From NCBI GenBank assembly GCA_964477895.1, contig CAYZFQ010000001.1, forward strand, positions 343,750 to 407,749: DNA of 64,000 nucleotides. Direction: 5' to 3'. Position numbers and translations under genes: made by a program. Every line of letters starts with the position of its first letter. Positions within the stretch are counted from its first letter, which is position 1. A model generated the notes under the pieces. That model was not told where the DNA came from. It did no database searches and saw nothing but the letters and a program-made list of their open reading frames with translations. This stretch comes from an uncultured Bacteriovoracaceae bacterium (lineage in GTDB: Bacteria > Bdellovibrionota > UBA2428). Positions 33,195-49,141 of the stretch are shown piece by piece.

Positions 33195-33195
33195 T

Positions 33196-34425
33196 ATGCG
33201 CGTCCGACTTTGGATGTTTTTTCTTTCAGCTCTTGCAAGTAATTTTACTGGGGCTCAGACCACTCACAATAATTCAAATGGTGATTTAAAAAACGAAGCC
33301 CGAGCTTCAATTGCAGCTCGCTTTGGCAAGCCCGTTTTTTGTGAGAATCCGGAGCCCTTTAAGGCGAAGCCTCGGCAAATGCTATCGGGAGTTCTTTCCG
33401 TAGTTGCCCCCCACAATTTACAAATGGAAAACGCCGAACCCTACTTTTATGCCCGGCGAATTGAGGGCAAGGGTCTACGAGTGTACTATCACGACGCGCG
33501 ACGAATCGAATCTCCTAGCACTTTGGTGGCCTACTTAGCGGACTCTGACTCAAATGGGGAGATCCAGCAAATTCTCTTTGTTCGGGGTAATCAGCGGGAG
33601 ATTAAGCTCGCAAAAATGCTAGATCTCGGGGCGGGCCTTTCTTCGGACCAAGAGGAAGCTGCGCCCTTTCGTGAAAAATTAGACAATATGGGAAAAAATT
33701 TTTTCAGAGTCGAAAACGCACCTAATGCCCACGGTCAGAAAGCCTTAAGTGAGCCAGAGCGAGAAAAAATCGCGGCTTGTTCCAATATGGATGATCTCAT
33801 GCGAGCGGTTGTAAGCGCGGGCAAGAGTGTGGGATGGAAGCCCTCAATGGCAGTAGACGATGGAGCCGGCGAGGATTTAGTTCGTGCTATTGGTGTGAAG
33901 TTCGCCAACCCTGCTCATTCCTACCTTGGGGCTCCCGCGCGCTTTGTGGGATCGGTTATAGACTTGGGCGAGGCCCGTAATGATTTTGTGGAGAATGAGA
34001 AAAAATGGGTAAAGAATGCGAAAATGGACGGAGCTTTGTCTGTTATCCCGCAGGGTGTTCAGCGAAATCTAGCTAAAGTCATGCTGCTGGACACTGCCCT
34101 ACAAAATGAAGCTAGCATTAGAACAGGCGCAAACTTTGTCGCCTCTATGGGGACAGGGATCGTGGGCAAAGGCAAAGCATTTATTAAAAGTGATTGGGAT
34201 GAAATGCAGCAGGTCGTTACAAATTCTGCAGCTGACCTCATATTTATCGGTGGAATTATAAAAATGGCTACCCCTCATGTGAAAGCTCCAAAAATAAACC
34301 TTCGTAAAACACCCGTCGTGAGTCAGGCCGCCGTTATAGATCAGACGGTGAACAATGTGGACCGACTCGGAAATACTGTGGGAGTGGGTGAAGAAGAGCG
34401 AGAAGCCAAGGAGCCTGCTCGTTAA
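33196..34425 (+). CDS. hypothetical secreted protein, 409 aa (same operon as the metalloprotease)
   Basis: Signal peptide. Starts 2 nt after the metalloprotease stop. Confidence 0.55.
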   Translation: MRVRLWMFFLSALASNFTGAQTTHNNSNGDLKNEARASIAARFGKPVFCENPEPFKAKPRQMLSGVLSVVAPHNLQMENAEPYFYARRIEGKGLRVYYHDARRIESPSTLVAYLADSDSNGEIQQILFVRGNQREIKLAKMLDLGAGLSSDQEEAAPFREKLDNMGKNFFRVENAPNAHGQKALSEPEREKIAACSNMDDLMRAVVSAGKSVGWKPSMAVDDGAGEDLVRAIGVKFANPAHSYLGAPARFVGSVIDLGEARNDFVENEKKWVKNAKMDGALSVIPQGVQRNLAKVMLLDTALQNEASIRTGANFVASMGTGIVGKGKAFIKSDWDEMQQVVTNSAADLIFIGGIIKMATPHVKAPKINLRKTPVVSQAAVIDQTVNNVDRLGNTVGVGEEEREAKEPAR

Positions 34426-34495
34426 CGAATTCTTAACACTTCGCTAACCGTATCTTGTTTGGATTGCTTCTATGCTCAACCACTACAATAGATAA

Positions 34496-35821
34496 ATGAA
34501 GGATATTTCCCGTCTTTTCTATTTGGGATTATTCGTTTTTGCGCCGGCACTTCGTGCCCAAGATACACCTGTGTTGGATAATACTAATAACGATGAGGTG
34601 GTTGAGAAGGCCAAAAAGGACGCCGAAGAGAGTGTGGCAAATCTTGAGAAGAATAAACAGAAGTTAGATGAAGCCGCTCAAGCCGGTGAATCGCTCCGCG
34701 AAAAACTTAAAGAATCTTTTTCTAAGTCTAAGGGTGGGGGCAGTAAGGACTCCGGCAATTCCGATAAGGAAGCGGGCGGAGCTGGAGCTCCGGCAGGAAC
34801 AACTACAGGCACTGGACATGGCAAAGCCGATGAGAATGGCGAAGCTATGGCTCCCCGCAAAGACGGCTCTACAGGTTATTACGCAGAATCGAAGGACCCC
34901 TCCGAAGTCATGGGTCCCAAAGAAGCCTACCGAAAACAAAACTTTAAAGGTCCGGCTGAATCTAACTTAAACTGGGAAGAAATAAGCGCACGACGCAGAG
35001 CTCGTTCGGACGCCCCCTTTGAACTCGGTTCGGACGCACTCAATGAATTTAAAGATGTGAATTGTGAAAATGGACAGTTCCCCCAGAACTCCCTTCAATT
35101 TATGTTGGAGGCGGGCCGAAATCGCCTAGAACAAGAGGGCAATCCCTCGGCCGAACGGTGTCGGATGGTCGGAGCCCAAGTTGCCAAACTGGCGGGTATG
35201 GCCGAAGGAGAAAGTAGTTTTAACTTTTCCTGCCTAACTTTGCACGGATCGGAAAAAGAGTCTGGTCGAGCAGGCTTTCGCTCCGTTTACACCCCCGACA
35301 ATAAACGATGGCAAATGTCTTCCTATGCATCTTATAAAAATGCACTCTCTGAGTTTGGTGGGAGTGTTAACCACACCACCAACAATGGGGTGATGCAGAT
35401 TTCTCCAGATCAGTTTATTCGTAAGGGAGCTACAGAACTTCTGGATTTCTACTCAAGCGGAAGTCCCGACGAAATCCTGAAAAAGTGTGGAACCGGTCGA
35501 GCATTCCATGACAGCGCCGATGCTCTGGCTGGAGAAATTGAAGAGTTAGCTGGACGTCGTACTTTGATGTTCAAGGAAAGAAATGGTCAAAAAATCTACA
35601 CTAACTTCGCTCGGAGCGCGCGCGACGTAAGTAGATGGCTAACCATATGTCCTGCCCTGAACTTTGCTATGGCTCAAATAATTTTAGATGACTACGGGTA
35701 CTCAGGCGGAGATTCATCCAAAATTCGAGCCTATTTCGGCACGGCCGCCAAAAAACCTCGTTGTGAACAAGTCATCCAACAAGCCCTCTGCGGCAGCTCA
35801 GGCCAGCTAGCAAGTAATTAG
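34496..35821 (+). CDS. hypothetical secreted protein, 441 aa, with charged low-complexity N-terminal region
   Basis: Signal peptide LFVFAPALRAQ, then a K/E/G-rich tract, then a Cys-containing globular part. Confidence 0.55.
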   Translation: MKDISRLFYLGLFVFAPALRAQDTPVLDNTNNDEVVEKAKKDAEESVANLEKNKQKLDEAAQAGESLREKLKESFSKSKGGGSKDSGNSDKEAGGAGAPAGTTTGTGHGKADENGEAMAPRKDGSTGYYAESKDPSEVMGPKEAYRKQNFKGPAESNLNWEEISARRRARSDAPFELGSDALNEFKDVNCENGQFPQNSLQFMLEAGRNRLEQEGNPSAERCRMVGAQVAKLAGMAEGESSFNFSCLTLHGSEKESGRAGFRSVYTPDNKRWQMSSYASYKNALSEFGGSVNHTTNNGVMQISPDQFIRKGATELLDFYSSGSPDEILKKCGTGRAFHDSADALAGEIEELAGRRTLMFKERNGQKIYTNFARSARDVSRWLTICPALNFAMAQIILDDYGYSGGDSSKIRAYFGTAAKKPRCEQVIQQALCGSSGQLASN

Positions 35822-35891: not shown

Positions 35892-36077
35892 ATGAACGTT
35901 AAGAAGAACAAAAAAAGAGGCCAAACTTCGGTGGAGTACATTCTCATTATCGGAGTCATTGTGGGCGTGATTATGCTTTTCGGAAAAACATTCCGTGAAA
36001 AAATCGCGGTTATCACGGATGGTCTTTTCTCGAACATCAACAGCAATATTCAGAGCAGCACCAACCCCGGAGGTTGA
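35892..36077 (+). CDS. flp: Flp/Fap-family type IVb pilin 1, 61 aa
   Basis: Basic leader then G/QTSVEYILIIGVIVGVIML: the Flp motif, with a prepilin-peptidase site after Gly and the conserved E-Y. Confidence 0.8.
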   Translation: MNVKKNKKRGQTSVEYILIIGVIVGVIMLFGKTFREKIAVITDGLFSNINSNIQSSTNPGG

Positions 36078-36078
36078 T

Positions 36079-36264
36079 GTGAAAAAACGAAAAGGACAGG
36101 CTCTTATCGAGTATGTCCTTCTCGTTGCCCTGCTTTCTACCGCGACATTGGTCTACGTGAAATTTTACGGCAAAGAAGTGTTGGGGAATGGTCTTAGGGC
36201 TTTGAAGGGGAGGATGGGGGATTGTATCTCTCATACGAATCGACAATGCAAATCTGGCCAATAA
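36079..36264 (+). CDS. flp: Flp-family pilin 2, about 62 aa from GTG 36079
   Basis: KKRKG/QALIEYVLLVALLSTATL. GGAGG lies 5 nt upstream of the GTG. The track ORF start at 35995 overlaps flp1. Confidence 0.7.
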   Translation: MKKRKGQALIEYVLLVALLSTATLVYVKFYGKEVLGNGLRALKGRMGDCISHTNRQCKSGQ

Positions 36265-36524
36265 AGAAGAAGCGAAAAAAGAATAAACGCAGCGGTCAGA
36301 CCGCCGTGGAATATATTCTGCTTCTGGCCGTTCTCACGAGTGTCCTTGTAGCAGGTCGCAAAGCTATGATGGAACCCCTCAATCAATTTTTTTCGATTTA
36401 CGTGCGCGGTTTTTCCAATACCTATAATCCCGAGACTTCCGCATCCACAGGCGGCAAAGATTTTACCCTTTATTACCTCAACGGCGGCTCCCCTGCCCCT
36501 ACCTCCACGGTCAAGGTACGTTGA
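36246..36524 (+). CDS. flp: Flp-family pilin 3 with C-terminal extension, about 92 aa
   Basis: KRSG/QTAVEYILLLAVLTSVLV. Start assigned at the internal ATG 36246. Confidence 0.6.
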   Translation: MQIWPIKKKRKKNKRSGQTAVEYILLLAVLTSVLVAGRKAMMEPLNQFFSIYVRGFSNTYNPETSASTGGKDFTLYYLNGGSPAPTSTVKVR

Positions 36525-36525: not shown

Positions 36526-37146
36526 ATGAAAGGCGCATCTTCACGTTCTAAAAGCGGCCAAACAGTTATTGAGTTTTCTTTTGTTATTATTCTTTTTGTT
36601 TTTATGATGATGGTCACCATCAATGCGGTGATTGCCTTTTGCACCCACCAGTACGTATCTTATGCCGTTTTTATGTCGGCTCGGGCCTACCAGGCTGCGG
36701 GGGGCACGGCCGACGAATCTCACACCCGAGCTGTGGCAGCTCTTCAATCCTACCTACCGGGCATTCCCGACGACAGCGGTGAAGGCCTTAGTATTCCTCT
36801 CACCATGCCGGGGATGGCCAAGCCCATTGCCACTATCGAGGGCGTGAACGTGCGTTCCCCCCAGCTTTATGACTATGGCCCCGCTGGTGAAATCGCAAAC
36901 GTAGAAATTTATGTGGATTTTTCTGTTCCTTTTGTGGACCTCCCCTTAGGACCGGAAATGCGGGCGCGGTTCGGAAAAATTCCTCTCCGGGCCAGTTCAT
37001 TTTTTGGCCGAGAAGCCTCACAGCAAGAATGCCAAGCTTTTTTTAAAAGATTCTTAGAGTCTTTTAAGATTTCCGGAGAAGTCGCGGGAGCTTACGAGAA
37101 CTTTTCCTCGGAGTTTTTTGGAAATATGGAGGACAACGGATGTTGA
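36526..37146 (+). CDS. tadE: TadE-like pseudopilin, 206 aa
   Basis: N-terminus SKSGQTVIEFSFVIILFVFMMM, as in the TadE/TadG N-terminal domain. Confidence 0.65.
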   Translation: MKGASSRSKSGQTVIEFSFVIILFVFMMMVTINAVIAFCTHQYVSYAVFMSARAYQAAGGTADESHTRAVAALQSYLPGIPDDSGEGLSIPLTMPGMAKPIATIEGVNVRSPQLYDYGPAGEIANVEIYVDFSVPFVDLPLGPEMRARFGKIPLRASSFFGREASQQECQAFFKRFLESFKISGEVAGAYENFSSEFFGNMEDNGC

Positions 37147-37604
37147 TCACTTCAAAAAAAGGCCAGGCCATTACAGAGTTTCTTCCGGCCTGCATTATTT
37201 TATTTATGGTGATGACGGCCGCCCTTTCGTATTACCGGGTGATGCGCGCGGCTTCCATTCGCCAAGAAGTGGTGCGCAATTTGACCTTTGCTAAAATTCG
37301 CAATTCTGGACCTCTCACCACCACACCCGACCAACTCGCCGGTGGTTCAGGGTCGGGACTTCCGCGACTTAACATGGAGCGCATCAGCGTTTCCGGTGGG
37401 CGCAATGCCATTGCCGAGACTCCGGTGATGAATGCCGGAAATCACGACTTTATTCGCTTTGATTCCAACTGTTTCACCGTTTATCCGGCGGATCCCAAGG
37501 TCACGATAAAACTGGGTCCCCTCATGATGGCCGGTGACCTAGGGGATTTAGATTTTAGCACCTACGCCGTGATGTACCGGGGCCCGGGGGGCGGCTGTCC
37601 TTAG
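37140..37604 (+). CDS. TadE/TadF-like pseudopilin, 154 aa
   Basis: KKGQAITEFLPACIILFMVM N-terminal motif. Overlaps the previous gene by 7 nt. Confidence 0.6.
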   Translation: MLITSKKGQAITEFLPACIILFMVMTAALSYYRVMRAASIRQEVVRNLTFAKIRNSGPLTTTPDQLAGGSGSGLPRLNMERISVSGGRNAIAETPVMNAGNHDFIRFDSNCFTVYPADPKVTIKLGPLMMAGDLGDLDFSTYAVMYRGPGGGCP

Positions 37605-37662: not shown

Positions 37663-38580
37663 GTGAACCAGTCGAGAGCCTTCTTGATGAGCATCGTGTT
37701 TGCCGGCCTCGCCATGCTTTTGGTTTACTTTTACGTTTCCGAGCGTGAGAGCAGCATTTCCGCCGAATACGGCACGCCCATTGCGGTGATCGTTGCCGCC
37801 AAAGACATCAACGAGTTCGAAGAAATTCAGCAAAGCATGTTGGCCGTAAAAGTCGTGCCCATGAAATTTGCTCAGCCAGGCGCTTACAACATGATCAAAT
37901 CGGGTAAGACCGAAAAACTTTCGCAGTTTACGGTAGAAACTTTTGTGGGCGCCGTGGCTTCGGCTCCCATTCGTAAGGGTGAGCAGGTCCTCTTAAATAA
38001 AGTTTTACTCAAGGGCGTGGAAACAGGCTTGGCCTCACAAGTCGCCATTTCGCGCCGAGCTCTTTCGATTCCCGTGAACGACACCACGGGAGTGACTAAA
38101 CTTTTAAAACCCGGCGACCGCGTGGATCTTATCGCGAGCGTTCAGTACAAGGGTCAGGGCGGTCAGGAATCTGAAGTTAAAACCCTCATGCAAAACGTTC
38201 ACGTTTTGGCCGTGGGTGAAGTGATCCAAAATAAAATTCCTACAGCCTTTGAAGTGGATCCTCTTTCAGGAACCCGAAAGGCTTTGAACCTTCGGGGGAG
38301 CCGCCAGTTCGGAACCATCACCGTAGAGGTCACCCCCGGCGAAGCTCAAAATATTATATGGGCTCTTCAAAACGGTTCTGAAATTTATACCAGCCTTCGA
38401 AATCCCGTAGATCGTGTGGTGGCCTCCGTCCCCACATCAACTGTGGACGAAGTCTTGGGACCTAACTCCAAAAAGGCCGAGCGGGAGCGAGTCAAACCCG
38501 TTATCAAGCCCGTGGAAAAAGCTCCGCCTCCGCCACCGCCTTCCAGCTTCAGCAACTCGGGTGGGGGATTATTTAAATAA
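37663..38580 (+). CDS. cpaB: Flp pilus assembly protein CpaB/RcpC, 305 aa
   Basis: N-terminal TM anchor then SAF/beta-rich domains. Gene order conserved with the Tad locus. C-terminal PPPPPPSS tract. Confidence 0.75.
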   Translation: MNQSRAFLMSIVFAGLAMLLVYFYVSERESSISAEYGTPIAVIVAAKDINEFEEIQQSMLAVKVVPMKFAQPGAYNMIKSGKTEKLSQFTVETFVGAVASAPIRKGEQVLLNKVLLKGVETGLASQVAISRRALSIPVNDTTGVTKLLKPGDRVDLIASVQYKGQGGQESEVKTLMQNVHVLAVGEVIQNKIPTAFEVDPLSGTRKALNLRGSRQFGTITVEVTPGEAQNIIWALQNGSEIYTSLRNPVDRVVASVPTSTVDEVLGPNSKKAERERVKPVIKPVEKAPPPPPPSSFSNSGGGLFK

Positions 38581-38581
38581 T

Positions 38582-40414
38582 ATGAGAAAGTCTTTCTTAA
38601 AGTTTTCTCTTTTGGTACTCGGAGTTTTTATAGGCTCCCTTCGAGCTCAGGACGCCGAGCCGGCTCCAGATTCCTCAACTAACCGAAATCCAGCCATGGT
38701 TCCTCCGGCGGGTTCACCGGCCGAAGCTGAGCCCGCACCCACTCCCTTGGCTGAAGAAACCCCAGCTCCCACTCCGCTTAAGGAAACCCTTTCATTAATA
38801 GACGGGATTAAAAGCGATGTTCCTGGATCCATTGCAGATACCAACGTTAACCGAATCATGGAATCTAAGGTTAAGTCCCAAACTTTAAATCCTGACAAAG
38901 GCTTTGAAGACCTCTTCTTAACTAAGAACTCCAGTGCGGTATTAGACATTCATAAACTGCCCGTGAAAAATCCCGGGGAAGATTTGGAATGGCTCCAAAC
39001 CAATATTGGCATTGTGGCCAAATCAGAAAAAGACCCCTCAGGTGGTTTTCGTGTTTATGCGGGAACCCAAGTGGGTTCGACTCAAATTCTTGTTTACGAG
39101 CGCAAGGCCGCTGTTGCCGGTAAACGAGATCGTGGAAATCTCCTTAAAGTCTACCGAGTAACGGTAACCAGCGAAGACCTTCTTTCACTGCTCCAAGAAA
39201 TTAAGGCCCTAATCGGAAATGTGGAAGGTCTAGATATTCGAGTGGTGGGCACCCAAGTCGTGATTGATGGAGCGGTCCTTGTCCCCAAAGACATGCGCCG
39301 AGTGGTGGCCGTGGTGAGCAAATATCAAACAGAGAAAAAGCCAGTGATTAACTTAGCTGAGATCTCTCCTCTAACTACCAAGCTTCTGGCTGAAAAAATG
39401 GAAGAAGAAATTGCGGGTGGAAAAGACCGACCCCGCGAAATTAAAGTTAAAGTCGTGAACGGAAGGTTTTTCCTAGAAGGTGCGGTAGACAAACAGGCTG
39501 AGCGTGAAACCGCCGTTCGAATTTGCCAAGCCTACATTTCAGAGCGCTACACCCTTGAAAACTCAGCCTCGGTGCAATCGCCTCGAATTCCAGGCCTTAA
39601 TGAATGTGTGCTGATGGTAAAGATTCGCCAAGGCCAGCCGGCGGATCCCGATCCCATCATTAGTGTACGCGTGGATTTTGTTACTTTAGATCGAAACTAC
39701 CTTAAGAGCTTTAACTTTAGGTGGGCGCCTGGAATGAACTTGAAGGGCGAAGTGGGTTATTCCAGTGACGCCGGAAAATTTCTCACTTCCTTTGTGGGCC
39801 TCTTGGATAATCTATTTCCCAAGTTAGAAACAGCGGCTTCTCATGGACATGCGCGTATTCTTAAAACGGCAACTCTTCTTGTGCGAGACGGCGAGAACGC
39901 GGCCAAAGGTGGGGGAGCGCCGCCCGAGGCTCAAATATCTGAAGTGTTAAAACTTCCTGTAATGATTCAGGGCACCGCTAATTCGCCAGGATCTTTCACC
40001 ACGGTTCCGGTTGAAACCTACATTAAAATTTTGGCCAAATCGGTGCCAGGGTCCGACAAAGTGAATATGGATATCTCAGCCAAGCAGTCTGAGATTAAAA
40101 GCCAAAACAAAGAGCAAGGTCCCACCGTCTTAGACAACATGATCCAAACCAGTATCGTGGTGGCCAACGGTGAAAGTGCGGCCTTAGGTGGCTTGATTGC
40201 CGAACGTCGCAACGTAGATATCACCCGGGACCCGGCCTCCGATGGTAACGCGGCCACTTCAGCCCAAAATAAATTTGAACTCTTCGACATCGGTCGAGGT
40301 CATAGCTTCAGCGACTCCAAAGTGCAGTTTATTGTCTTTGCCACACCCGAGAAACTGCGCACACCCTCTGAAGGAACCGAAAAACTTAAGCGTAAGTTTA
40401 GGTTGAGGAAGTAA
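38582..40414 (+). CDS. cpaC: Flp pilus secretin CpaC/RcpA, about 610 aa from ATG 38582
   Basis: Signal peptide MRKSFLKFSLLVLGVFIGSLRAQ. C-terminal secretin signature VVANGESAALGGLI. The track ORF begins inside cpaB. Confidence 0.8.
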   Translation: MRKSFLKFSLLVLGVFIGSLRAQDAEPAPDSSTNRNPAMVPPAGSPAEAEPAPTPLAEETPAPTPLKETLSLIDGIKSDVPGSIADTNVNRIMESKVKSQTLNPDKGFEDLFLTKNSSAVLDIHKLPVKNPGEDLEWLQTNIGIVAKSEKDPSGGFRVYAGTQVGSTQILVYERKAAVAGKRDRGNLLKVYRVTVTSEDLLSLLQEIKALIGNVEGLDIRVVGTQVVIDGAVLVPKDMRRVVAVVSKYQTEKKPVINLAEISPLTTKLLAEKMEEEIAGGKDRPREIKVKVVNGRFFLEGAVDKQAERETAVRICQAYISERYTLENSASVQSPRIPGLNECVLMVKIRQGQPADPDPIISVRVDFVTLDRNYLKSFNFRWAPGMNLKGEVGYSSDAGKFLTSFVGLLDNLFPKLETAASHGHARILKTATLLVRDGENAAKGGGAPPEAQISEVLKLPVMIQGTANSPGSFTTVPVETYIKILAKSVPGSDKVNMDISAKQSEIKSQNKEQGPTVLDNMIQTSIVVANGESAALGGLIAERRNVDITRDPASDGNAATSAQNKFELFDIGRGHSFSDSKVQFIVFATPEKLRTPSEGTEKLKRKFRLRK

Positions 40415-40417: not shown

Positions 40418-42607
40418 ATGGCTGATCCAAACCAAAGTCCGGGCGGTCACATCATCGCCATCGTAGGTGGTAAGGGTGGAGTTGGAAAATCAGTTTTTGC
40501 CGCCAACTTTGCCCTCTCCATGGCCATCGATGCCAAGAATGGCCCGGCTCTAATTGATATGGATCCTCAGGGTACCGGCGACTTAAATTTGATCTTAGGC
40601 ATCAAGCAGGTCAAAGGTTTCGGTGAGCAAGTGCTCGAGGGAAAGATTCGAGATTCTGCGGCCCTAAAGCAATTTCTGACCCCAGCTCCTAACACACAGA
40701 GCCCACTTTACACCTTGCAGATGATGAGCAACCCTGAGCGCCTTCTCGTCCAAGATGATGAGCGTGTGGATTTAGCCTTAAAATCTTTGCGCAAAGCCTT
40801 TCCTGTAACCATCATCGACTGTGGCACTTCACTTGAAGGGCCGATTCTTAAAGTTTTGGATTTGGCTTCGATGATCATGGTAGTGACCAACCCCGAGATT
40901 CTTGTTCTCAACCAGACGAAGAAGATCTTAGATAAAATCCAAACCCTGCTTTATCCGCCCGACATGACAAAAATAGTTTTAAACAAGGTTTCACCTCAAA
41001 GTCCCTACACGGCGCAATTTTTAGAGCAAAGTCTTAAGCGCCAGGTGATATCTGTGGTCCCTGAAGATGTGGCTGCCGCCAGTATGGGTTTGGCCAAAGG
41101 ATCTCCTTTTGTGGTGTCTTCACCTCAGTCCGGCGCCTCCAAAGCTCTTTTCCAGCTCAGTCGCCTGCTCATTGAGCGCAAAGTCTTAGATCAGCTCCAA
41201 ACTCTAAGTCGCCCCCCTCGTCCCAAAGCGGCCTTGGAAGTTATTGAGGGCGGAGCCTCATCGGTGGCTGCAGGCTCCAGCGGTAACAATGAGGTTAAGC
41301 ACGGACGTTTTGGAAAGGATCCCAGAGATCCGCGCAGCATTTTTAAACTCCGAGTCCATGCTCAGCTTGTTGAAAAAATGGATTTAAAAAAAGAACAGCT
41401 CGATCGGGCCTTAGACAACGAGAAAAAAGTGGAGCTTAAGAACAAAGCTCTTAAAATCGTGAGTGAGATCATGAATAACGAAGACCACCCTTGGAAGAGC
41501 CGCGAAGACAGCGCTCAACTCATCAAGGAAGTCTTAGATGAGGCCCTAGCCCTGGGGCCCTTAGAAGATTTGATAGCCGATGATTCCGTTACCGAAATCA
41601 TGGTGAACCGAGCTGACCTAATTTATATTGAGCGCGCGGGTCGCAATACTAAGTCTAAAGTAACTTTTTCAAGCAATACCCAGTTGATGGCGGTCATTGA
41701 GCGGATCGTCAATCCTATCGGCCGGCGCATTGATGAAAAAACCCCCTACGTAGACGCCCGTTTAGCAGACGGAAGCCGGGTCCATGCCATCATTCCTCCC
41801 CTTTCATTAGATGGTCCCATGGTCACCATTCGTAAATTTCCTAAAAAGCGATTGGGCCCTGAAGATTTAATTAAATACGGTTCGGTCACACCCGAAATGT
41901 CAGATTTTTTACGAGCCTGCATTGAAGCCCGCCTCAATGTGATTGTGAGTGGGGGTACGGGTTCTGGTAAAACCACTCTTTTAAATATTTTATCAAGTTT
42001 TATCCCAGCAACTGAACGTATCCTTACCGTGGAAGACGCGGCCGAGTTGCGGCTTAACCAAGAGCACGTGGGCCGTTTAGAAACACGTCCTCCCAATATC
42101 GAAGGCGCCGGTGCTGTTACTATTCGAGATCTGGTACGCCAAACTCTGCGTATGAAACCTGACCGCATCATCATTGGTGAAGTGCGAGCCGGTGAGGCGC
42201 TCGACATGCTTCAGGCCATGAATACGGGGCACGATGGTTCAATGGCCACGGTCCATGCCAATACTCCGCGAGATGCCATCGCTCGTTTGGAAACTCTCGT
42301 GATGATGGCGGGCATGGACTTACCCGCCAAGGCCATTCGCGACCAAATTTCTAGCGCTGTGCATTTGGTGGTTCAACAAAGCCGTTTATCCGATGGGTCT
42401 CGTAAAGTGACTTACGTGACGGAGATCACCGGGATGCAGGGAGATGTGATTTCTTCCCAAGATATATTTCAGTTTAAGCAACAAGGTTTGGATTCCAATC
42501 GCAAGGTAATCGGTAAGCACGTGGCGACCGGTTTTATTCCTAAGTTTATCGAGAGGATTGAGGCTTTGGGAATCAAAATTCCCCGAGGACTCTTTAAAGC
42601 GGCATGA
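40418..42607 (+). CDS. fused TadZ/CpaE-like ParA-type ATPase (N-terminal about 260 aa) and TadA/CpaF secretion ATPase (C-terminal), 729 aa
   Basis: Deviant Walker A IVGGKGGVGKS near the N-terminus (ParA/MinD). Later VSGGTGSGKTT, DRIIIGEVR and GHDGSMATVHAN (VirB11/TadA). A single uninterrupted ORF. Confidence 0.8.
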   Translation: MADPNQSPGGHIIAIVGGKGGVGKSVFAANFALSMAIDAKNGPALIDMDPQGTGDLNLILGIKQVKGFGEQVLEGKIRDSAALKQFLTPAPNTQSPLYTLQMMSNPERLLVQDDERVDLALKSLRKAFPVTIIDCGTSLEGPILKVLDLASMIMVVTNPEILVLNQTKKILDKIQTLLYPPDMTKIVLNKVSPQSPYTAQFLEQSLKRQVISVVPEDVAAASMGLAKGSPFVVSSPQSGASKALFQLSRLLIERKVLDQLQTLSRPPRPKAALEVIEGGASSVAAGSSGNNEVKHGRFGKDPRDPRSIFKLRVHAQLVEKMDLKKEQLDRALDNEKKVELKNKALKIVSEIMNNEDHPWKSREDSAQLIKEVLDEALALGPLEDLIADDSVTEIMVNRADLIYIERAGRNTKSKVTFSSNTQLMAVIERIVNPIGRRIDEKTPYVDARLADGSRVHAIIPPLSLDGPMVTIRKFPKKRLGPEDLIKYGSVTPEMSDFLRACIEARLNVIVSGGTGSGKTTLLNILSSFIPATERILTVEDAAELRLNQEHVGRLETRPPNIEGAGAVTIRDLVRQTLRMKPDRIIIGEVRAGEALDMLQAMNTGHDGSMATVHANTPRDAIARLETLVMMAGMDLPAKAIRDQISSAVHLVVQQSRLSDGSRKVTYVTEITGMQGDVISSQDIFQFKQQGLDSNRKVIGKHVATGFIPKFIERIEALGIKIPRGLFKAA

Positions 42608-43473
42608 ACGTTTGGCTTATCTCCATACTTTCAGCGCTGCTTTTCTTTTTTTCGCTGTATCTTTCTTTTGATTATTGGTTCGAAAAACTCTGGCTGGGTA
42701 ACATGGTCAAAACCACAGAAGAAGCCGTGCGAGTTTTTGAAGATGTCTTTCAGCCCAAAACTATTGAACAAATGCGCAACCTGCAACTATCTATTGCCGG
42801 TGGCTCTTCGGCTCTAATTTTATTCCTGTGTTGGCCGGAAGTGGCCATAGGTATCCCCGCAGCTTTAATTACTTTTTGGTACACCTGGAAGCTGCCCCTT
42901 GTTTATATCAAGTATTGGGTGCGCCCCCGTCGAATTACCCAGTTTTCCCACCAAATGGTGGACGCTCTGACTCTTATGGCTAACGGTCTTAAGTCCGGGC
43001 TCAACATCTCCCAGGCTTTGCAAATTGTGGTGGACGAGATGCCGGCCCCCATTCGGGAAGAGTTTGGTTTAGTGCTCAACGAGAATAAAATCGGGGCCAC
43101 CTTAGAGAAGGCTTTTGAGAACATGGGAGCTCGGATGCCGTCAGAAGACGTGAGCATGTTTGTGACCTCGGTAAACATTTTGCGCGAAACAGGCGGTAAC
43201 ATCGCCGAAACTTTTGAAACCATTACCAAAACCATCCGCGAACGCATCAAATTACAGAATAAAATATCAGCCATGACGGCCCAAGGGATGACTTCAGCCT
43301 TCATTGTAGGAGCCATGCCCTGGGGCATTGGCATCATGCTCTATGGGATCGACCCTGACACGATGCGGCCAGTCTTCACTCGGGCCGCGGGCATTGTGAT
43401 CTTAATGATTATTACGGCACTCGAGGTGCTAGGTTTCTACGTGATCGTCAAAATTGTGAGGATCCGCGTATGA
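42604..43473 (+). CDS. tadB: TadB/TadC-type (T2SS-F domain) inner-membrane platform protein, 289 aa
   Basis: Three TM segments with a T2SS-F fold. Only one copy present. 4-nt overlap with the ATPase gene. Confidence 0.75.
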   Translation: MNVWLISILSALLFFFSLYLSFDYWFEKLWLGNMVKTTEEAVRVFEDVFQPKTIEQMRNLQLSIAGGSSALILFLCWPEVAIGIPAALITFWYTWKLPLVYIKYWVRPRRITQFSHQMVDALTLMANGLKSGLNISQALQIVVDEMPAPIREEFGLVLNENKIGATLEKAFENMGARMPSEDVSMFVTSVNILRETGGNIAETFETITKTIRERIKLQNKISAMTAQGMTSAFIVGAMPWGIGIMLYGIDPDTMRPVFTRAAGIVILMIITALEVLGFYVIVKIVRIRV

Positions 43474-43553
43474 TACAGAGGGCCCATGAAAAACTATTGA
43501 CGCCTTACCGGATGAGAAACCGGGTTAGACTATTAAAAAGTTCAGGAGGGATT

Positions 43554-45149
43554 ATGGCTCGTACTCGAAATCTTTGGCTTCTTGGAGTTCTTTTATTCAG
43601 TGCTTCTATCTCGCAGGCGGGAGTGAACGTGAACAACGGGAATTTCTACATTGCGTATACGGATTTTTTCCTTCCCACTCCGGGACTGAATGTGGAAATC
43701 ACCCGCACCTACAATAGCCGATCAAACTATGCCAAAGGCTACTTTGGGATGGGTTGGTCCTCTGAAATGGAAGGTTACCTAGTTTTCGATAAGAGCACCT
43801 TGGTTTACTTCGAGGGAGGCGGAGGTAACGCCGTTCGCTTCGAGCCTGTGAAAGGTAAAAAAGGGGAGTGGTCTAACTCCATCTACGGAAATCAAAATAT
43901 TCGGCAAATCAAAAATGGCTATGTGCTGCGCACTCCCGTGGCTAAGGACCTCCAGTTTGATATGAAGGGCCGGCTGGCCAAGATTTCCGACCGCAATCGC
44001 AATTACATTGAGTTTGTCTACAAGGGTGTTCGCCCGCAGATGATCAAAGACAACCACAATAACCAAATCAAAATTAGCTGGAAAGACTTCGGAAAGTTCC
44101 CCCGAATTGTGGCTCTCGAGCGTGGTGAAATGAAAGCCCGATATGAGTATTCACCAACCGGTGATCTTGTTAAGGCCTCCGGCCTCGATGGCAACCCTTT
44201 CGAGTACGCCTGGGATGACGAACACAATCTCACCAAGATTTCTTATAAAGACGGCACCTACCGAGAAATCGCTTACAACAAAGTTCGCGACTGGGTTGTG
44301 AAGTACCGGGAGCGCGACAAATGGATTACCGACTACGAATATATCTCGGATACTTTAGATCCAGAGAATAAATTTGGAACCGTTGTGAGCCGCTACAAAG
44401 AGGGCTCAAAAGATAAAGAATCATCGCGCTACTGGTACGAGTTCCGCCGGCGCGCGGATGGCAGTCGTTACAATTACAAAGCCGTAACGCTAGCCAATAA
44501 CTTAGCGACAGAGTCCATCTTCACGGAGTGTTGCAATACTCCACTTGTCATTTCGCAGTGGAACAGCAATGACCCCAAACGAAGTGACGCACCGGATGCC
44601 TGGATTACAGCCAAGGGTCAAAAGCGCTCCACTTTTTTTGAATATTATGCCGATGGATTGTTAAAGAAGAAAACGGCTCCGGATGGAGCTGTAACTTTCT
44701 TAACCTACGATCCTAAAAATGGGAAAGTGGCCTCGGTAAGCCGTGCCGGTCGTAAAGTGGAATACAACTACGATGTGCGCGGAAACTTAGACTGGGCCTA
44801 CGATAGTGGCGACAATAAGCGCATTGACCTGACCTACGACCTTAAGGGTCGAATCACGGTAGTTAAAGAAGCGATCAATGGTGCCAAAGCCAGCTCTCGA
44901 CTCGTGTACTTCCGCTACAATGCTGAAGGAAAACCGATTGAGGTGAAAGAAAAAACTTCAGACGGCAACCAAGGATCCATTCAAATTGCCTACGATCGTA
45001 ACGGCGAAGTCTTAGCCATCACCAACAGTAAGGGTCGGGCCGTAGCTTCTGAGAACGAAATCGCAACGGCTCAGCGAGTGGCCATGACTTTCCAGAACTT
45101 AATGGAAATCGTGCAGCCCGCAGGGGTTAGCCTGAGTCCGGAAGGGTGA
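43554..45149 (+). CDS. secreted YD/RHS-repeat protein, about 531 aa from ATG 43554
   Basis: Perfect SD CAGGAGGG plus signal peptide. Repeated Y-x-YD/YEY motifs (YEYSPTGDLV, FEYAWDDEHNL, VEYNYDVRGNL, LTYDLKGRI). Plausible counterpart of Bdellovibrio hit-locus partner protein. Confidence 0.7.
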   Translation: MARTRNLWLLGVLLFSASISQAGVNVNNGNFYIAYTDFFLPTPGLNVEITRTYNSRSNYAKGYFGMGWSSEMEGYLVFDKSTLVYFEGGGGNAVRFEPVKGKKGEWSNSIYGNQNIRQIKNGYVLRTPVAKDLQFDMKGRLAKISDRNRNYIEFVYKGVRPQMIKDNHNNQIKISWKDFGKFPRIVALERGEMKARYEYSPTGDLVKASGLDGNPFEYAWDDEHNLTKISYKDGTYREIAYNKVRDWVVKYRERDKWITDYEYISDTLDPENKFGTVVSRYKEGSKDKESSRYWYEFRRRADGSRYNYKAVTLANNLATESIFTECCNTPLVISQWNSNDPKRSDAPDAWITAKGQKRSTFFEYYADGLLKKKTAPDGAVTFLTYDPKNGKVASVSRAGRKVEYNYDVRGNLDWAYDSGDNKRIDLTYDLKGRITVVKEAINGAKASSRLVYFRYNAEGKPIEVKEKTSDGNQGSIQIAYDRNGEVLAITNSKGRAVASENEIATAQRVAMTFQNLMEIVQPAGVSLSPEG

Positions 45150-45161: not shown

Positions 45162-45584
45162 ATGAAAATAAAAATTTTATCTCTTCTCAGTATTTTTACT
45201 CTCACAAGCTCCGCTTTTGCCCAAGGCTACATTCAGGGTAGGGGCGGCGGAGGCTGGGATCAGCAAGGCGGCACCCAAGAAACGATTCGTTATCGTGAAA
45301 GCTATAACCAGCAGGGCGGTCAGCAGGGCGCCTACGTGAATTGTATGCCGAATTGTCCACCCTCGGTGGTGATGCCACAGCGCTCCCAGGTGCTAGTTGC
45401 TGAAACCGGTGACATCATCAATGGTTGCGACACGGGCCGCTTTGATAAAAAAGAATGGCGCAACGACTACCGTGATGAAGGCGACGAACGCGAGCACGTG
45501 ATCAGAGAAAGAGTGTATGTACCACCTCGGTCAGAAGGCGATGGTAAAGAAGTGCCTCCAAGAAGTAACGGTTTAAAGAAGTAA
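45162..45584 (+). CDS. small secreted Gln/Gly-rich, four-Cys protein, 140 aa; candidate hit-locus (Bd0108-like) protein
   Basis: Signal peptide. GGGGWDQQGGTQ...NQQGGQQG repeats encoded by imperfect direct repeats CAGCA(A/G)GGCGG at 45261, 45309 and 45321. Position immediately after the tad genes and the YD-repeat gene. Confidence 0.5.
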   Translation: MKIKILSLLSIFTLTSSAFAQGYIQGRGGGGWDQQGGTQETIRYRESYNQQGGQQGAYVNCMPNCPPSVVMPQRSQVLVAETGDIINGCDTGRFDKKEWRNDYRDEGDEREHVIRERVYVPPRSEGDGKEVPPRSNGLKK

Positions 45585-47729
45585 TTACTTCGTAACTCCA
45601 CCTGTGTAAGAAGGCAGCCAGCTCCAGCCCCAAGTGCTGGGCTTATTCCAAATGCGCTTTGGAGGTCCCGCTTTTTTCGGCTGCCAGTTCCATCCGGGCA
45701 TTCCCTTAATGGAATAAGTTTGCTTTCGTTCTATTTCCCTTTCTTCAGCGGCAATTCTAATGGAACTTTCGCTCCACTGATCCGCTCTTTCAAAAGCCAA
45801 GCTAAGAGACTTAGCATCGTGCTGAGCACTGTCTAAGCGATTCAGGGAAGTGGTCTCTCTCCAGAACGGCTGGGTGGGTGTGGAAATTTCTGGCGTGGGC
45901 AGCTGGGCTTCCGCTTCAGGCAAATTAATTACCGCCACTACCCCTGGATGCTTTTCCAGATTAGCCATTTTTTCGGGACTGTGAGCTTCTTTTTCAGCGG
46001 CAGCCTCAGCTTCTTTGGTCATTGTCTTAATTTCTTCTTCAAGACCCTTTATGGCCTTGTCCAAGTTGGCAATGTCGCTAATGTCGAAGTCGCTTTTAGG
46101 AGGCCCAATGTCGTTTTTCTCTTGTATAAGTTTATACATTTCATCGCTTTTCGCCCGAATGGCCAAGTGGTCTTCTTTCGACATCATAGGACGAGCAATA
46201 ATCACAATAGACTTAGTCTCGGACGGTGGAGCCATGGGCATTGGGGGGCCTTCTAGCGCTGGCGCACCAGGCGGTAGCTTTCTAAACTCGAGTTGGGGTA
46301 TTTCTTCGTTGCCAGTCTTGGTGACATCGACCTCGATGAAGGGCACTAATTTTTCAACCGGAGCTTGTACTCTTTCTAAGGGCCAAAATCTTTTAGCAAA
46401 GGCGCCTTCAATCGCTGTGATAACATCTTCGGTTTTAGATAGGGCGCGAGCCACGTAAATCTCGCTATTCTTCGCATTGACTAATGCCGGACCATCGATG
46501 CCATTGTAAGTTCCAGCAAGATAGGCCGGTGAAAAGAATTTTTGGAGCATGGAGCGCACGAGCAGAAGATCTTCCCGATTTTGCTTCCACTGCTGATAAA
46601 AGGCACGAAGTTCTTCTTCTCTTTCCACTTCAGCAAACGAATTTTGTCCCAGATTCGAATGAATTCCTTCTAAATCAGGCATGAAATCATTTTTAACCAC
46701 ATCGAGATAGAGATCGCTGATATCTTTTTGAGCCCGGGCAAGGCTGTCGGCCACAGGATCTACACGGTAAACAGTGACCTTGGCTCGATAGGCCGTTTCA
46801 AGAGCGCCGACAACAATTCCCGCAATTGCAAGGCCAGAGGCGGTTTGACTCATGTGCCGACTCATCCCATCCATTAAATCTGGAATAAAGACCCGATTGC
46901 CGTAGCCTAAAAGGAGAGTGCCTGGCGCTGCAGGATTGGCGGGAGCCGTTGGAATCGCACCTTTCTTGGCGCGTTTCGCCAACACGCGTTTCCACTGTAA
47001 GTCGGAAATTCGTTTAGCATACCTGTTGCTAAACCAAAGTTGAGGTCGATGAGCTCGGCTTTGTAAACGATTGCCCGCCATCGAGAGGCCACCAATAACC
47101 ATGCGTCCGGTAAAGAGGGCGGCCGATGCCATGAGCCATCCTTCCGAGGCGTTATAGAAATTATTTGAGTGATATGAGAACTCTCCGTTTTGTTCGCGGT
47201 TTCGTTTAACTTCAAGCTCATTGCGCATTTTTGCTTGTAACGTGCTCATCAGCATGGAAATGGCGTCCCAAATGACGTCGGGCTTTTGAGGAAAGGTGAC
47301 GAGAGCGGTTCGAGAATAAACTTCTGTAATTTCTCCCATCATGGCTGCAAATGAAGCCTTCTCAGTGAGAGTATCAAAAAGCAAAGTTGCCACTTCGTCG
47401 GCTGCTTGCTCCGGGCTCAGAGAAAGAAGTACGGAGTTGGCGTAACGGTCGCGGCACCGCTTTCCATCGAGGCGTAACTCTTCGGCGGAAGCCTTGCCCT
47501 CCGGACTTTGAAGATTTTCATCAGGAGGCAAGAGCTTTCGATAAGTCTTAAAAGGTTCAGCGCGAGGGGTGGTGTCGAGTGCGGAGGCCTCTCTGTCTGC
47601 CAGAATACTTACGCACAGATATTCCGTGATTTTTTGCCGAGCGAGTTCGAAATCATCTTTAACTTCAGCCCCCTGGGCAGATAAAAAAGTGCCAGAAATC
47701 AACGCTAAGAAAAGGGTTTTGTAACTCAT
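45585..47729 (-). CDS. hypothetical secreted protein, 714 aa, Trp-rich C-terminal tail
   Basis: Signal peptide. C-terminus GMPGWNWQPKKAGPPKRIWNKPSTWGWSWLPSYTGG. Its stop codon abuts the stop of 45162..45584 (TAATTA). Confidence 0.6.
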   Translation of the reverse strand: MSYKTLFLALISGTFLSAQGAEVKDDFELARQKITEYLCVSILADREASALDTTPRAEPFKTYRKLLPPDENLQSPEGKASAEELRLDGKRCRDRYANSVLLSLSPEQAADEVATLLFDTLTEKASFAAMMGEITEVYSRTALVTFPQKPDVIWDAISMLMSTLQAKMRNELEVKRNREQNGEFSYHSNNFYNASEGWLMASAALFTGRMVIGGLSMAGNRLQSRAHRPQLWFSNRYAKRISDLQWKRVLAKRAKKGAIPTAPANPAAPGTLLLGYGNRVFIPDLMDGMSRHMSQTASGLAIAGIVVGALETAYRAKVTVYRVDPVADSLARAQKDISDLYLDVVKNDFMPDLEGIHSNLGQNSFAEVEREEELRAFYQQWKQNREDLLLVRSMLQKFFSPAYLAGTYNGIDGPALVNAKNSEIYVARALSKTEDVITAIEGAFAKRFWPLERVQAPVEKLVPFIEVDVTKTGNEEIPQLEFRKLPPGAPALEGPPMPMAPPSETKSIVIIARPMMSKEDHLAIRAKSDEMYKLIQEKNDIGPPKSDFDISDIANLDKAIKGLEEEIKTMTKEAEAAAEKEAHSPEKMANLEKHPGVVAVINLPEAEAQLPTPEISTPTQPFWRETTSLNRLDSAQHDAKSLSLAFERADQWSESSIRIAAEEREIERKQTYSIKGMPGWNWQPKKAGPPKRIWNKPSTWGWSWLPSYTGGVTK

Positions 47730-49141
47730 TCGGCAGCTCCATTTTTAGTGGTTCGGGGAAAGGTGGTCATATAATCATCAATGATAATTTCTACGGCTTT
47801 AGATGTGCGGCCATGGCGGTACATCTCACTTAAAGCTTGGAGGGCGAGAATTCCGGCATTTTGGGTGGATAGTCTCTGTGCTTCAAGACTGAGCGAAAAA
47901 GCAGCGGGATCCGCATCAAAGCGTTCCCATTCGGAGTAAAAAAGCTCGATGACTTTTGGATTGTTAAGCGCTTGGGAGCTATCCAAAAACTCTGCCGTGT
48001 CTCGGGCGACTGTTGCTTCATCAGTGGCCTCACGCACTTTTTCATAATGACTTTTTATAAGAACATGGGTTTTATCCATCGTGAGGCGGTAAAGATTAAT
48101 TGTTTGGGATTCGAAGCGGCGGAAGGCACTTTCTATATCCCAGGAATTGGCGGTTGATCTTAGCTTGCGAAATTCTTCTAAAGCCTCGAGGTATTTCTTT
48201 TCTGCCTTCAAATCCTGGTTGTAAAATTTGTTAACCCCAACGGCGATTCCAGCCGTGAGTAACATGGAAGAAAGCAACTGTTCGGGTTGAATGGTGTTGT
48301 AAACAGCTCTCCCTCCCTGCAGCATTTTTTTGGCCAAGCGCGGCCAGAGAGCCTTTTCATCGCTCAGAGCAAGTTGAGCTAAAAAAGAACAATTCTTTGA
48401 ATTTGACCACCGGCTAAAAGCCGAGGTCTCAAAAGCTTTTTCAACTACAAAGTTGGCCAAGGTGTTTTCCGCGCCGGCTAAGTAAAAATCTTCCACGTAT
48501 TCACGCAGAGCATTTTCCTCTAGGTCTACCGGAGCAACGTCGAGCTTTACACCTAGGATTTCAGCAGGTGATGTGGGGATTTTAAAAGAAGCCAAGGAGT
48601 TGCTCACTCCCTCGATGCCCTTAATCGACCCTGCCAGCGAAGCTGCGGGAATCGCCGAATAACCCAGTCGTAAAGCATTCTTTGACCAGGACCCACGAGC
48701 TGAGGCCAATAGATTGAGGTAGCGGCGCCTAAACACCGGGGTGCGGATTAAGCCGTTGAAGGCAAAGGCGGTATAAAGACCGTACTGAGCGCTTCGACCC
48801 AGAGACTCTTTTTTGAGGTCTGCAACTGTTGTTTCGTAGTTGGCGGTCCAGCGCTGTTGGGCTTTCCATAGCAAATCTAAATAAGCGTCATCAGTTTCTG
48901 AGAGTTCAGAAAAGTGTTCTAAAGTTTTGCGGTAGATAGGAGCAAAGGGGTCACGAAAGATTTCCGCGAGTATTTTGTTAGAATAGCGCCGCGCTAAATC
49001 CGGTTTTTGAGCATGATAATTTTTTACAAATTCGGCAGACCAGTTCTCGATCGGCATCTCCTCGGCATGCAAGAAGGCAGACAAAGCGAGGCCCAGAAAG
49101 GGACCTTTTTTCGCTAATGTCGTTAGAGCCTTCATTTTCAT
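47726..49141 (-). CDS. hypothetical secreted protein, 471 aa
   Basis: Signal peptide. ATGA overlap with the downstream 714-aa gene. Confidence 0.6.
   Translation of the reverse strand: MKMKALTTLAKKGPFLGLALSAFLHAEEMPIENWSAEFVKNYHAQKPDLARRYSNKILAEIFRDPFAPIYRKTLEHFSELSETDDAYLDLLWKAQQRWTANYETTVADLKKESLGRSAQYGLYTAFAFNGLIRTPVFRRRYLNLLASARGSWSKNALRLGYSAIPAASLAGSIKGIEGVSNSLASFKIPTSPAEILGVKLDVAPVDLEENALREYVEDFYLAGAENTLANFVVEKAFETSAFSRWSNSKNCSFLAQLALSDEKALWPRLAKKMLQGGRAVYNTIQPEQLLSSMLLTAGIAVGVNKFYNQDLKAEKKYLEALEEFRKLRSTANSWDIESAFRRFESQTINLYRLTMDKTHVLIKSHYEKVREATDEATVARDTAEFLDSSQALNNPKVIELFYSEWERFDADPAAFSLSLEAQRLSTQNAGILALQALSEMYRHGRTSKAVEIIIDDYMTTFPRTTKNGAAE

Follow-up and report, generated by a model that had tools for sequence, protein, structure and literature searches.

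The window analysed here, a 64-kb stretch of DNA, carries a tad locus on its forward strand. The locus encodes pilins, a secretin, a platform protein and, in a single open reading frame (ORF), both a TadZ-like ATPase and the TadA motor. Its features are as follows.

35892..36524, + strand: three tandem Flp-type pilin ORFs (35892-36077; within 35995-36264; 36222-36524)
36526..37604, + strand: minor pilins, TadE-like (36526-37146) and TadF-like (37140-37604)
37663..38580, + strand: RcpC/CpaB
38414..40414, + strand: RcpA/CpaC secretin
40418..42607, + strand: tadZA, TadZ-TadA fusion ATPase; single ORF, 729 aa, stop codon included
40445..41203, + strand: TadZ-like ParA/MinD ATPase domain with no receiver ahead of it (aa 10-262)
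40472..40492, + strand: deviant Walker A motif KGGVGKS (aa 19-25), with signature lysine K19 and P-loop lysine K24
41204..41329, + strand: inter-domain linker rich in Pro, Gly, Ser and Ala (aa 263-304); core (aa 271-296) predicted to be disordered
41330..42604, + strand: TadA/CpaF motor module (aa 305-729), with an N-terminal three-helix bundle, an N-terminal domain and an ATPase domain
42604..43473, + strand: TadB platform protein
43470..45149, + strand: RHS/YD-repeat protein, homologue of Bd0109
45162..45584, + strand: 140-aa ORF for a secreted, Gly/Gln-rich low-complexity protein, at the position of the hit gene bd0108

The three pilin ORFs carry processing motifs of the G/xxxxEY type (GQTSVEY, GQALIEY and GQTAVEY) and match class III signal peptides; their start codons are uncertain, and homologues were found in the related loci L002 and L003. 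The same two loci have kept both the TadE-like and the TadF-like gene, which match Pfam TadE and contain GQTVIEF and GQAITEF motifs. RcpC/CpaB (Pfam RcpC, 2.7e-21, and SAF) is 39% identical to its counterpart in the B. bacteriovorus Bd16 locus (L044). The secretin matches Pfam Secretin and BON. Its listed GTG start overlaps rcpC, and the true start is probably further downstream, because homologues align only from about residue 133. TadB matches Pfam T2SSF (6.1e-22). The RHS protein (Pfam DUF6531 and RHS_repeat) shares 27% identity over 590 aa with the product of the gene that follows tadB in L044. The 140-aa ORF resembles bd0108 by position alone, having no Pfam match and no tblastn similarity to the other loci compared.

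We also searched the window for components that commonly accompany this machinery. The motor is encoded alongside one T2SSF gene (42604-43473) and not alongside both TadB and TadC, since tblastn in six frames of the 64 kb revealed no second T2SSF protein. Nor did the six frames contain an A24 prepilin peptidase (TadV), another ParA protein or deviant Walker A motif, or a separate tadZ. Pfam was run on the ORFs flanking the tad locus and on almost every window ORF of 150 aa or more; among these it detected no receiver domain and neither MinC nor MinE. The missing tadC does not argue against function, because the Tad repertoire of B. bacteriovorus is likewise dispersed, with tadC reported elsewhere in the genome (bioRxiv 10.64898/2026.07.08.737194).

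The initial annotation had described one uninterrupted 729-aa ORF, and this holds: 40418..42607 starts with ATG and its translation contains no internal stop. The rcpA stop codon (40412-40414) lies upstream, a Shine-Dalgarno-like GAGGAAG lies 5' of the tadZA ATG, and the tadZA stop overlaps the tadB ATG (ATGA). From its gene order and junctions, rcpC-rcpA-tadZA-tadB-RHS shows the layout of a translationally coupled operon.

The annotation had also placed a ParA/MinD domain with a KGGVGKS motif ahead of a complete TadA module, and had called for the domains to be parsed with hidden Markov models. When this was done, the N-terminal part proved ParA-like and the C-terminal part TadA, with match scores far beyond chance. 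Pfam CbiA and AAA_31 (ParA/MinD) match at aa 11-221 (2.9e-16 and 3.4e-11) and NCBIfam MinD models at aa 11-260 (1e-22 and 2e-19). The switch I residues D47 and D49 and the Walker B residue D134 are invariant or nearly so among homologues, and judged by these positions and the two lysines the TadZ module shows an intact MinD-type nucleotide-binding residue set. As had been claimed, the receiver-like N-terminal domain is missing: neither Pfam nor NCBIfam detected Response_reg or any other receiver-like domain in the 729-aa protein, and the ParA fold begins at about residue 10.

The C-terminal module matches Pfam T2SSE at aa 379-654 (8.9e-65) and the NCBIfam TadA family at aa 347-667 (2.5e-99). 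Its Walker A motif GGTGSGKT (aa 512-519, nt 41951-41974), its Walker B motif DRIIIGE and its His box are present, and GGTGSGKT, DRIIIGE and TGHDGSMATVHAN can be read directly in the translation. Compared with the solved Caulobacter CpaF structures (8rkd, 9e24), this part scored 1.2e-124, the next family reaching 2.7e-35, and an unfused TadA shares 51% identity with it. The protein as a whole reaches none of the NCBIfam equivalog cut-offs, including that of TIGR03819 (332.7, below the cut-off of 373.15). By its motifs and profile matches, the module is assigned as a T2SSE ATPase with Walker A, Walker B, Asp and His boxes that is closest to CpaF/TadA and not to PilB, PilT or GspE.

In the predicted structure, from which the secondary structure of the TadA module, including its three-helix bundle, was read, pTM was 0.51 and pLDDT fell below 50 at aa 271-296. 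The linker also has the lowest conservation in the MAFFT alignment (0.27-0.35), where it is gappy and, depending on the homologue, 37-63 residues long. The TadZ and TadA domains are thus modelled as independently folded units joined by a variable, disordered linker, which in the window protein spans about 40 residues.

TadZ/CpaE is the factor that sets where in the cell the Tad pilus machine assembles, and TadA/CpaF is the hexameric motor behind the extension and retraction of Flp pili. We considered whether the N-terminal module descends from TadZ, or whether a MinD/FlhG-type ATPase was recruited independently onto TadA, so that comparisons with TadZ/CpaE would mislead. In an exhaustive profile search, the proteins ranking next after the fused family were 380-440 aa long and matched at about residues 120-180 to 370-415. 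These nearest unfused relatives consist of Response_reg and ParA domains, and some are named CpaE by JGI. Four of the five sampled lie in tad loci, three of them directly upstream of tadA, and one (P0154) lies outside any tad locus. Locus L086 has the order secretin-TadZ-TadA-TadB, as in the window, and several of the unfused relatives from tad loci carry the motif KGGVGKT. With the A1 profile, receiver-plus-ParA proteins identified as TadZ by their position in tad loci scored 147-169 bits, against 54-72 for bacterial MinD, 65 for FlhG and 53 for Soj.

The MinD equivalog model TIGR01968 gave 69.9, far short of its cut-off of 212.9, and there is no minC, minE or separate tadZ nearby. In fold, the N-terminal module resembles MinD/FlhG more than it does 3fkq, a distant structure that is, to our knowledge, the only solved TadZ. 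Independent recruitment of a MinD/FlhG-type ATPase appears improbable, and we rejected the module as a MinD on its profile scores, its tad-locus position and the missed MinD cut-off.

As expected of TadZ/CpaE, the module is a ParA/MinD-superfamily domain in a tad locus immediately before tadA, although here it is fused in frame to it, after the secretin gene. The receiver-like domain characteristic of TadZ/CpaE is present in the nearest unfused relatives and absent in the fusion. Ranked by profile scores, TadZ/CpaE proteins from tad loci come nearer to the module in sequence than any other ParA/MinD subfamily compared. Together, these comparisons show what we read as a TadZ-derived ParA/MinD ATPase that lacks the usual N-terminal receiver-like domain. 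The TadZ-like identity proposed initially is upheld by the position of the module in the tadZ slot, between the secretin gene and TadA, and by the receiver-plus-ParA architecture of its nearest unfused relatives upstream of tadA.

The fusion is widely shared. Both Walker A motifs are present in 117 of the 120 best homologue matches (716-755 aa, 54-100% identity), which represent 117 independent protein clusters drawn from NCBI, JGI, ENA and Logan; KGG[VILM]GK[ST] is found in the same number, and the remaining three are N-terminally truncated. Scanning genomes with the N-terminal domain as seed yielded 80 loci, none labelled outside Bdellovibrionota, with some carrying generic names only, such as Proteobacteria. 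All 72 loci that are not cut by a contig end, the window's own (L001) included, have a single ORF (701-765 aa) that contains both motifs. Among them are complete chromosomes, namely those of B. bacteriovorus Bd16, Bdellovibrio sp. HCB209, HCB288 and HCB117, and qaytius. The closest loci, at 59% and 75%, come from metagenome-assembled genomes that bear the label Bacteriovorax stolpii or Bdellovibrionota.

Although the gene is one ORF, the cell might contain mostly two proteins, produced by internal translation initiation or by proteolysis of the linker. The disorder and variability of the linker would suit such processing, and codon 283 is an in-frame GTG with a GGAG-like stretch ahead of it. 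A search for an internal start that might yield a separate TadA, however, found neither a conserved initiation codon nor a strong ribosome-binding site around the beginning of the TadA module, and M321 lies inside a conserved helix behind an A/T-rich sequence. If separate proteins were favoured, re-splitting would be expected in some lineages, whereas all 72 complete loci are fused. Immunoblots of the B. bacteriovorus orthologue tagged with msfGFP revealed the full-length fusion (bioRxiv 10.64898/2026.07.08.737194). We consider it very unlikely that two proteins predominate, and retain a single TadZ-TadA polypeptide as the product.

The remaining alternative, that errors in assembly, sequencing or gene calling merged separate tadZ and tadA genes, starts from the fact that a single NCBI contig is the sole recorded source of this exact protein sequence; it is effectively refuted by the conservation of the in-frame junction across the 117 clusters and the 72 loci, closed chromosomes among them, by a linker that is never interrupted despite its variable length, and by the full-length B. 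bacteriovorus protein, and is given almost no weight. The comparison with related genomes that the initial annotation had proposed was carried out here and found the junction in frame in each genome examined, so the risk of an artefact had been overestimated.

The novelty of the fusion had been overestimated as well. TadZ-TadA fusion is already known and is not a new discovery: the TadZA protein of B. bacteriovorus HD100 (bd0111, tad locus 1) was described in July 2026 by Tesseur, Denise, Santin and Laloux, who also cite an earlier mention of the fusion (bioRxiv 10.64898/2026.07.08.737194). They report that TadZA lacks the receiver domain, is essential and is encoded in one operon with tadB, that its TadZ domain plus linker binds the polarity hub RomR, and that it localises dynamically between the poles with a bias to one of them (bioRxiv 10.64898/2026.07.08.737194). 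The names of bd0110-bd0113 follow PMC5430801, and those of the hit-locus genes bd0108 and bd0109, with the description of Bd0109, follow PMC3818213. By tblastn, RcpC, RcpA, the N-terminal domain, TadA, TadB and RHS occur in the same order in the Bd16 locus, with identities of about 34% for the N-terminal domain and 62% for the TadA part. The window ORF is therefore in all likelihood the orthologue of B. bacteriovorus TadZA from another member of Bdellovibrionota, with the TadZ module, linker and TadA conserved in one polypeptide. Because the N-terminal domain is only 34% identical, the partner interface of the TadZ module in the window may differ from that in B. bacteriovorus.

The initial annotation had proposed that covalent fusion hard-wires the localisation factor to the motor. 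Such coupling is a hypothesis for B. bacteriovorus TadZA, where it has been partly tested (bioRxiv 10.64898/2026.07.08.737194), and it extends to the window copy by analogy. If the window protein behaves as its orthologue does, its TadZ module and linker would bind RomR, whose degenerate receiver domain may replace the one lost from the TadZ module. RomR binding would then bias the motor, and hence assembly of the Tad machine, towards the invasive pole. We further infer that, with a TadZ module tethered to each subunit, a TadA hexamer would bear six of them, and that ATP-dependent sandwich dimerisation of neighbouring modules could link their nucleotide state to motor assembly or motor location.

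A more speculative possibility is that the fusion is ancestral and has been retained by all Bdellovibrionota, genomes labelled Bdellovibrionia, Bacteriovoracia and Oligoflexia among them, and that its TadZ module acts as an ATP-driven oscillator that carries the pilus motor from pole to pole. A true oscillator is conceivable because the TadZ module of the window's clade keeps the complete MinD-type catalytic set. We know of no type IV filament machine whose motor is delivered between poles by an oscillator. Although we regard this combined proposal as doubtful, the oscillator, if real, would tie the origin of the fusion to an invasive-pole lifestyle. Fast pole-to-pole shifts of B. bacteriovorus TadZA have been reported without a cause, and the distribution of the fusion across taxa was not reported there (bioRxiv 10.64898/2026.07.08.737194).

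Covalent TadZ-TadA is a natural experiment in which a positioning ATPase is coupled to a motor ATPase. The significance of Bdellovibrio TadZA, as part of an essential prey-invasion machine, is already recognised in the literature. Our addition is modest: a fairly divergent orthologue, the identification of the nearest unfused relatives, and the observation that the fusion, receiver loss and association with the RHS gene and hit locus are all conserved throughout the phylum. These data open no new question but are useful for comparative work and for studies of co-evolution, for instance at the RomR interface.

Among known systems, MinD, FlhG (FleN) and 3ea0, which we take to be an orphan ParA-family protein of Chlorobium tepidum, all have profile scores well below those of TadZ-type proteins. 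The fusion further differs from this group in lacking MinC/MinE partner genes, in leaving the MinD equivalog cut-off unreached, and in a C-terminus that enters the linker and motor instead of ending in a free amphipathic membrane-targeting helix.

Its closest counterpart is B. bacteriovorus TadZA, with which it shares a ParA/MinD-like TadZ domain without the atypical receiver domain (ARD), followed by a flexible linker and a full TadA. The surroundings are also alike: rcpC, rcpA, tadB and the RHS gene for Bd0109 lie in the order bd0113 to bd0109, where tad locus 1 adjoins the hit locus, tadC and tadV are missing from the locus, and the tadZA stop and tadB start codons overlap. The window copy is divergent and known here from its sequence, whereas RomR binding, essentiality and pole-to-pole dynamics are B. 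bacteriovorus data.

The canonical arrangement, seen in Aggregatibacter actinomycetemcomitans, Caulobacter crescentus and the Bacillota and Chloroflexi loci L084, L086 and L088, has TadZ/CpaE and TadA/CpaF encoded by two genes. In the window they form one polypeptide from which the receiver-like N-terminal domain of about 130 aa is missing, and, in comparison with canonical TadZ, both Walker A lysines are kept. The likeness to the two-gene systems lies in a TadZ-type fold that directly precedes the motor, with order and locus position unchanged.

The tadZA gene is, as the initial annotation had it, a single uninterrupted 729-aa ORF (40418-42607, + strand); it begins with ATG and contains no internal stop codon. 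A GAGGAAG Shine-Dalgarno-like sequence precedes the ATG, which lies three bases past the stop codon of the upstream secretin gene, and the tadZA stop codon overlaps the ATG of the downstream gene. HMM domain parsing, suggested in that annotation as a check, recovered the claimed N-terminal ParA/MinD-type nucleotide-binding domain at residues 11-221 (Pfam CbiA, 2.9e-16; AAA_31, 3.4e-11), with the deviant Walker A motif KGGVGKS at residues 19-25, and NCBIfam MinD models match residues 11-260 at 1e-22 and 2e-19. The C-terminal part contains a T2SSE secretion-ATPase domain (Pfam, residues 379-654, 8.9e-65) within a TadA-family match (NCBIfam, residues 347-667, 2.5e-99), and the motor Walker A motif GGTGSGKT occupies residues 512-519. 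Solved Caulobacter CpaF structures match this part at 1.2e-124, and the next family at 2.7e-35. In an alignment with a stand-alone TadA encoded in a Bacillota tad locus, the match begins at residue 35 of that protein and residue 309 of the window protein (51% identity), which indicates that the motor module is essentially complete, as was originally proposed. Pfam and NCBIfam searches found no receiver-like domain before the ParA fold, which bears out the predicted lack of this domain.

The fusion gene lies within a tad locus, listed here with a transposase ORF and flagellin genes found elsewhere in the window.

21863-22477, - strand: IS200-like Y1 transposase ORF, adjoining two tandem flagellin genes
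22910-23737 and 24060-24968, - strand: the tandem flagellin genes
35892-36524, + strand: three tandem Flp-type pilins (processing motifs GQTSVEY, GQALIEY and GQTAVEY)
36526-37604, + strand: TadE-like and TadF-like minor pilins
37663-38580, + strand: RcpC
38414-40414, + strand: RcpA secretin
40418-42607, + strand: tadZA fusion
42604-43473, + strand: TadB
43470-45149, + strand: RHS/DUF6531 (YD-repeat) protein of 559 aa, Bd0109 homologue
45162-45584, + strand: secreted low-complexity Gly/Gln-rich ORF of 140 aa, in the position of hit gene bd0108

The TadE- and TadF-like genes closely follow the Flp-type pilin ORFs. For the second and third pilin ORFs, the annotated starts run into the ORF before and have probably been placed too far upstream. 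In its longest form the secretin ORF shares 167 nt with rcpC (38414-38580); since its homologues align with it only beyond about residue 133, rcpA probably begins well past 38414. No TadC (second T2SSF), A24 prepilin peptidase (TadV) or receiver-domain protein was found in the 64-kb window, and the absence of TadC and TadV agrees with reports that the Tad genes of B. bacteriovorus are dispersed. A related locus on a 2.98-Mb contig (L001) has an A24 peptidase (4802-5320) and a duplicated RcpC (6468-8336). Upstream, five ORFs at 29969-35821 (+; 307, 148, 593, 409 and 441 aa) have no Pfam match; the 593-aa ORF may belong to the tad locus, since its homologues precede the tad genes in two related loci (L002 and L003). 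The large ORFs at 45585-53519 (-; 714, 471, 1095 and 325 aa) likewise lack Pfam matches. The remainder of the window is ordinary chromosome, with lepA, carAB, recG, the two flagellin genes, mraW and genes for a PBP, a Mur ligase, a class II aminoacyl-tRNA synthetase and citrate synthase.

We searched 1.84 billion representative proteins exhaustively for relatives of the N-module, using A1, a profile of the N-domain. Ranked next after the fused family are proteins of 380-440 aa, which match at approximately residues 120-180 to 370-415 and carry a Response_reg domain followed by a ParA domain; some bear the JGI name "pilus assembly protein CpaE". The genomic contexts of five sampled from these nearest unfused relatives are as follows.

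P0143: Flp-TadE-Tad-RcpC-secretin-[P0143]-TadA-TadB-TadC
P0162: Flp-A24-TadE-TadG-RcpC-[P0162]-TadA-TadB-TadC
P0152: Flp-x-[P0152]-TadA-TadB-TadC
P0147: adjoins A24-TadB-TadC-TPR-TadA
P0154: outside any tad locus

It is modest new information that the nearest unfused relatives of the fusion are TadZ proteins with a receiver domain, from canonical tad loci. Recruitment of a MinD-like module onto TadA independently of TadZ is improbable, because positional TadZ proteins score 147-169 bits with A1 compared to 54-72 bits for bacterial MinD (3ea0, 102; archaeal MinD, 83-93; FlhG, 65; Soj, 53), and because the module directly follows the secretin, is fused to TadA, and is the only ParA found in the 64-kb window. 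Score ranking and synteny therefore support derivation of the N-module from a TadZ that lost its receiver domain. Another architecture in the family is seen in P0208 (680 aa), with a receiver domain at residues 7-117 and a TadZ-like ATPase domain at residues 418-663.

Among 60 aligned homologues, N-domain conservation is moderate, falls to 0.27-0.35 with gaps at residues 271-300, and recovers from the invariant D304; the segment matching residues 255-310 is 37 to 63 residues long, depending on the homologue. AlphaFold2 gave a pLDDT of 89.4 for the N-domain alone, and 85.8 with a pTM of 0.51 for the full-length protein, in which residues 271-296 fall below 50 and are followed by a three-helix bundle (residues 305-354) and then the N- and C-domains of TadA. 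The variable linker and these model scores predict two independently folded modules on a flexible tether. It is very unlikely that the gene yields two proteins through internal initiation or cleavage in the linker; we sought an internal start and found none that was convincing. The N-module retains K19 (the signature lysine), K24 (P-loop), D47/D49 (switch I) and D134 (Walker B), which suggests that it can bind ATP and dimerise. Unlike the window's clade, the deeper fused lineages represented by P0183 and P0207 have KGGVGQT in place of KGGVGKS; because the P-loop lysine is replaced, the TadZ module's need for ATP hydrolysis may differ between lineages.

Comparison with homologues, also proposed initially, drew on 5.8 billion proteins. 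Full-length relatives with the same domain pair are 54-100% identical among the matches listed, and in 117 of 120 listed relatives KGG[VILM]GK[ST] lies close to the N-terminus, with GGTGSGKT following some 490 residues later; the remaining three have a truncated N-terminus. A1-seeded scanning of GTDB genomes, one for each species, gave 80 loci, all labeled Bdellovibrionota (Bdellovibrionia, Bacteriovoracia, Oligoflexia) or with older generic names. Every locus uncut by a contig end (72/72, including L001) has a single 701-765 aa ORF with both motifs; the motor motif in L053 is the variant GGTGTGKT. With this recurrence, and with closed chromosomes in the fused set (B. bacteriovorus Bd16; Bdellovibrio sp. 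HCB209, HCB288, HCB117 and qaytius), an assembly-derived merger of tadZ and tadA is ruled out for practical purposes, and all three alternatives to TadZA are weak. Among the Bdellovibrionota sampled here, the fusion appears to be universal, again a modest addition.

The fusion is already known from B. bacteriovorus, so its novelty, implied at first, does not stand; a recent preprint credits its existence to an earlier source (bioRxiv 10.64898/2026.07.08.737194). [quoted passage not shown] TadZA-msfGFP shifts rapidly from pole to pole with a RomR-dependent bias to the invasive pole (bioRxiv 10.64898/2026.07.08.737194). The initial reading that receiver loss and fusion hard-wire the localiser to the motor is supported and lies close to this published hypothesis. 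Alongside the observed architecture, conservation, operon structure, TadZ ancestry and intact nucleotide-binding motifs, we consider a mechanism in which the TadZ module and linker would dock on the polarity hub RomR, by analogy with the B. bacteriovorus orthologue. The degenerate receiver domain of RomR may stand in for the one lost from TadZ, and docking would bias the TadA motor, and hence Tad assembly, to the invasive pole. We further infer that six TadZ modules would be tethered to each TadA hexamer, so that ATP-dependent pairing of adjacent modules could link the positioning ATPase's state to the assembly or position of the motor.

The window shares the order RcpC-RcpA-fusion-TadB-RHS with L044 of B. 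bacteriovorus and a further eight loci; in B. bacteriovorus it corresponds to bd0113, bd0112, bd0111, bd0110 and bd0109 (PMC5430801). The host-interaction (hit) locus comprises the RHS protein Bd0109 and the small disordered Bd0108, and bd0108/bd0109 are co-transcribed with bd0110-bd0111 (PMC3818213). In B. bacteriovorus, tadC is located away from these genes, tadV is missing from the tad loci, and the hit locus is a direct neighbour (bioRxiv 10.64898/2026.07.08.737194). An RHS gene follows tadB in 9/9 loci compared, and the 140-aa ORF has no detectable similarity to its small-ORF counterparts in those loci. In the window's lineage, the host-interaction locus of Bdellovibrio thus seems to have kept its position. 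Because the gene order matches bd0113-bd0109 and the hit genes adjoin, we take the window to carry the counterparts of both tad locus 1 and the hit locus. Compared with the B. bacteriovorus fusion, the window copy is 34% identical in the TadZ module and 62% in the TadA module, as judged from sequence a fairly divergent orthologue.
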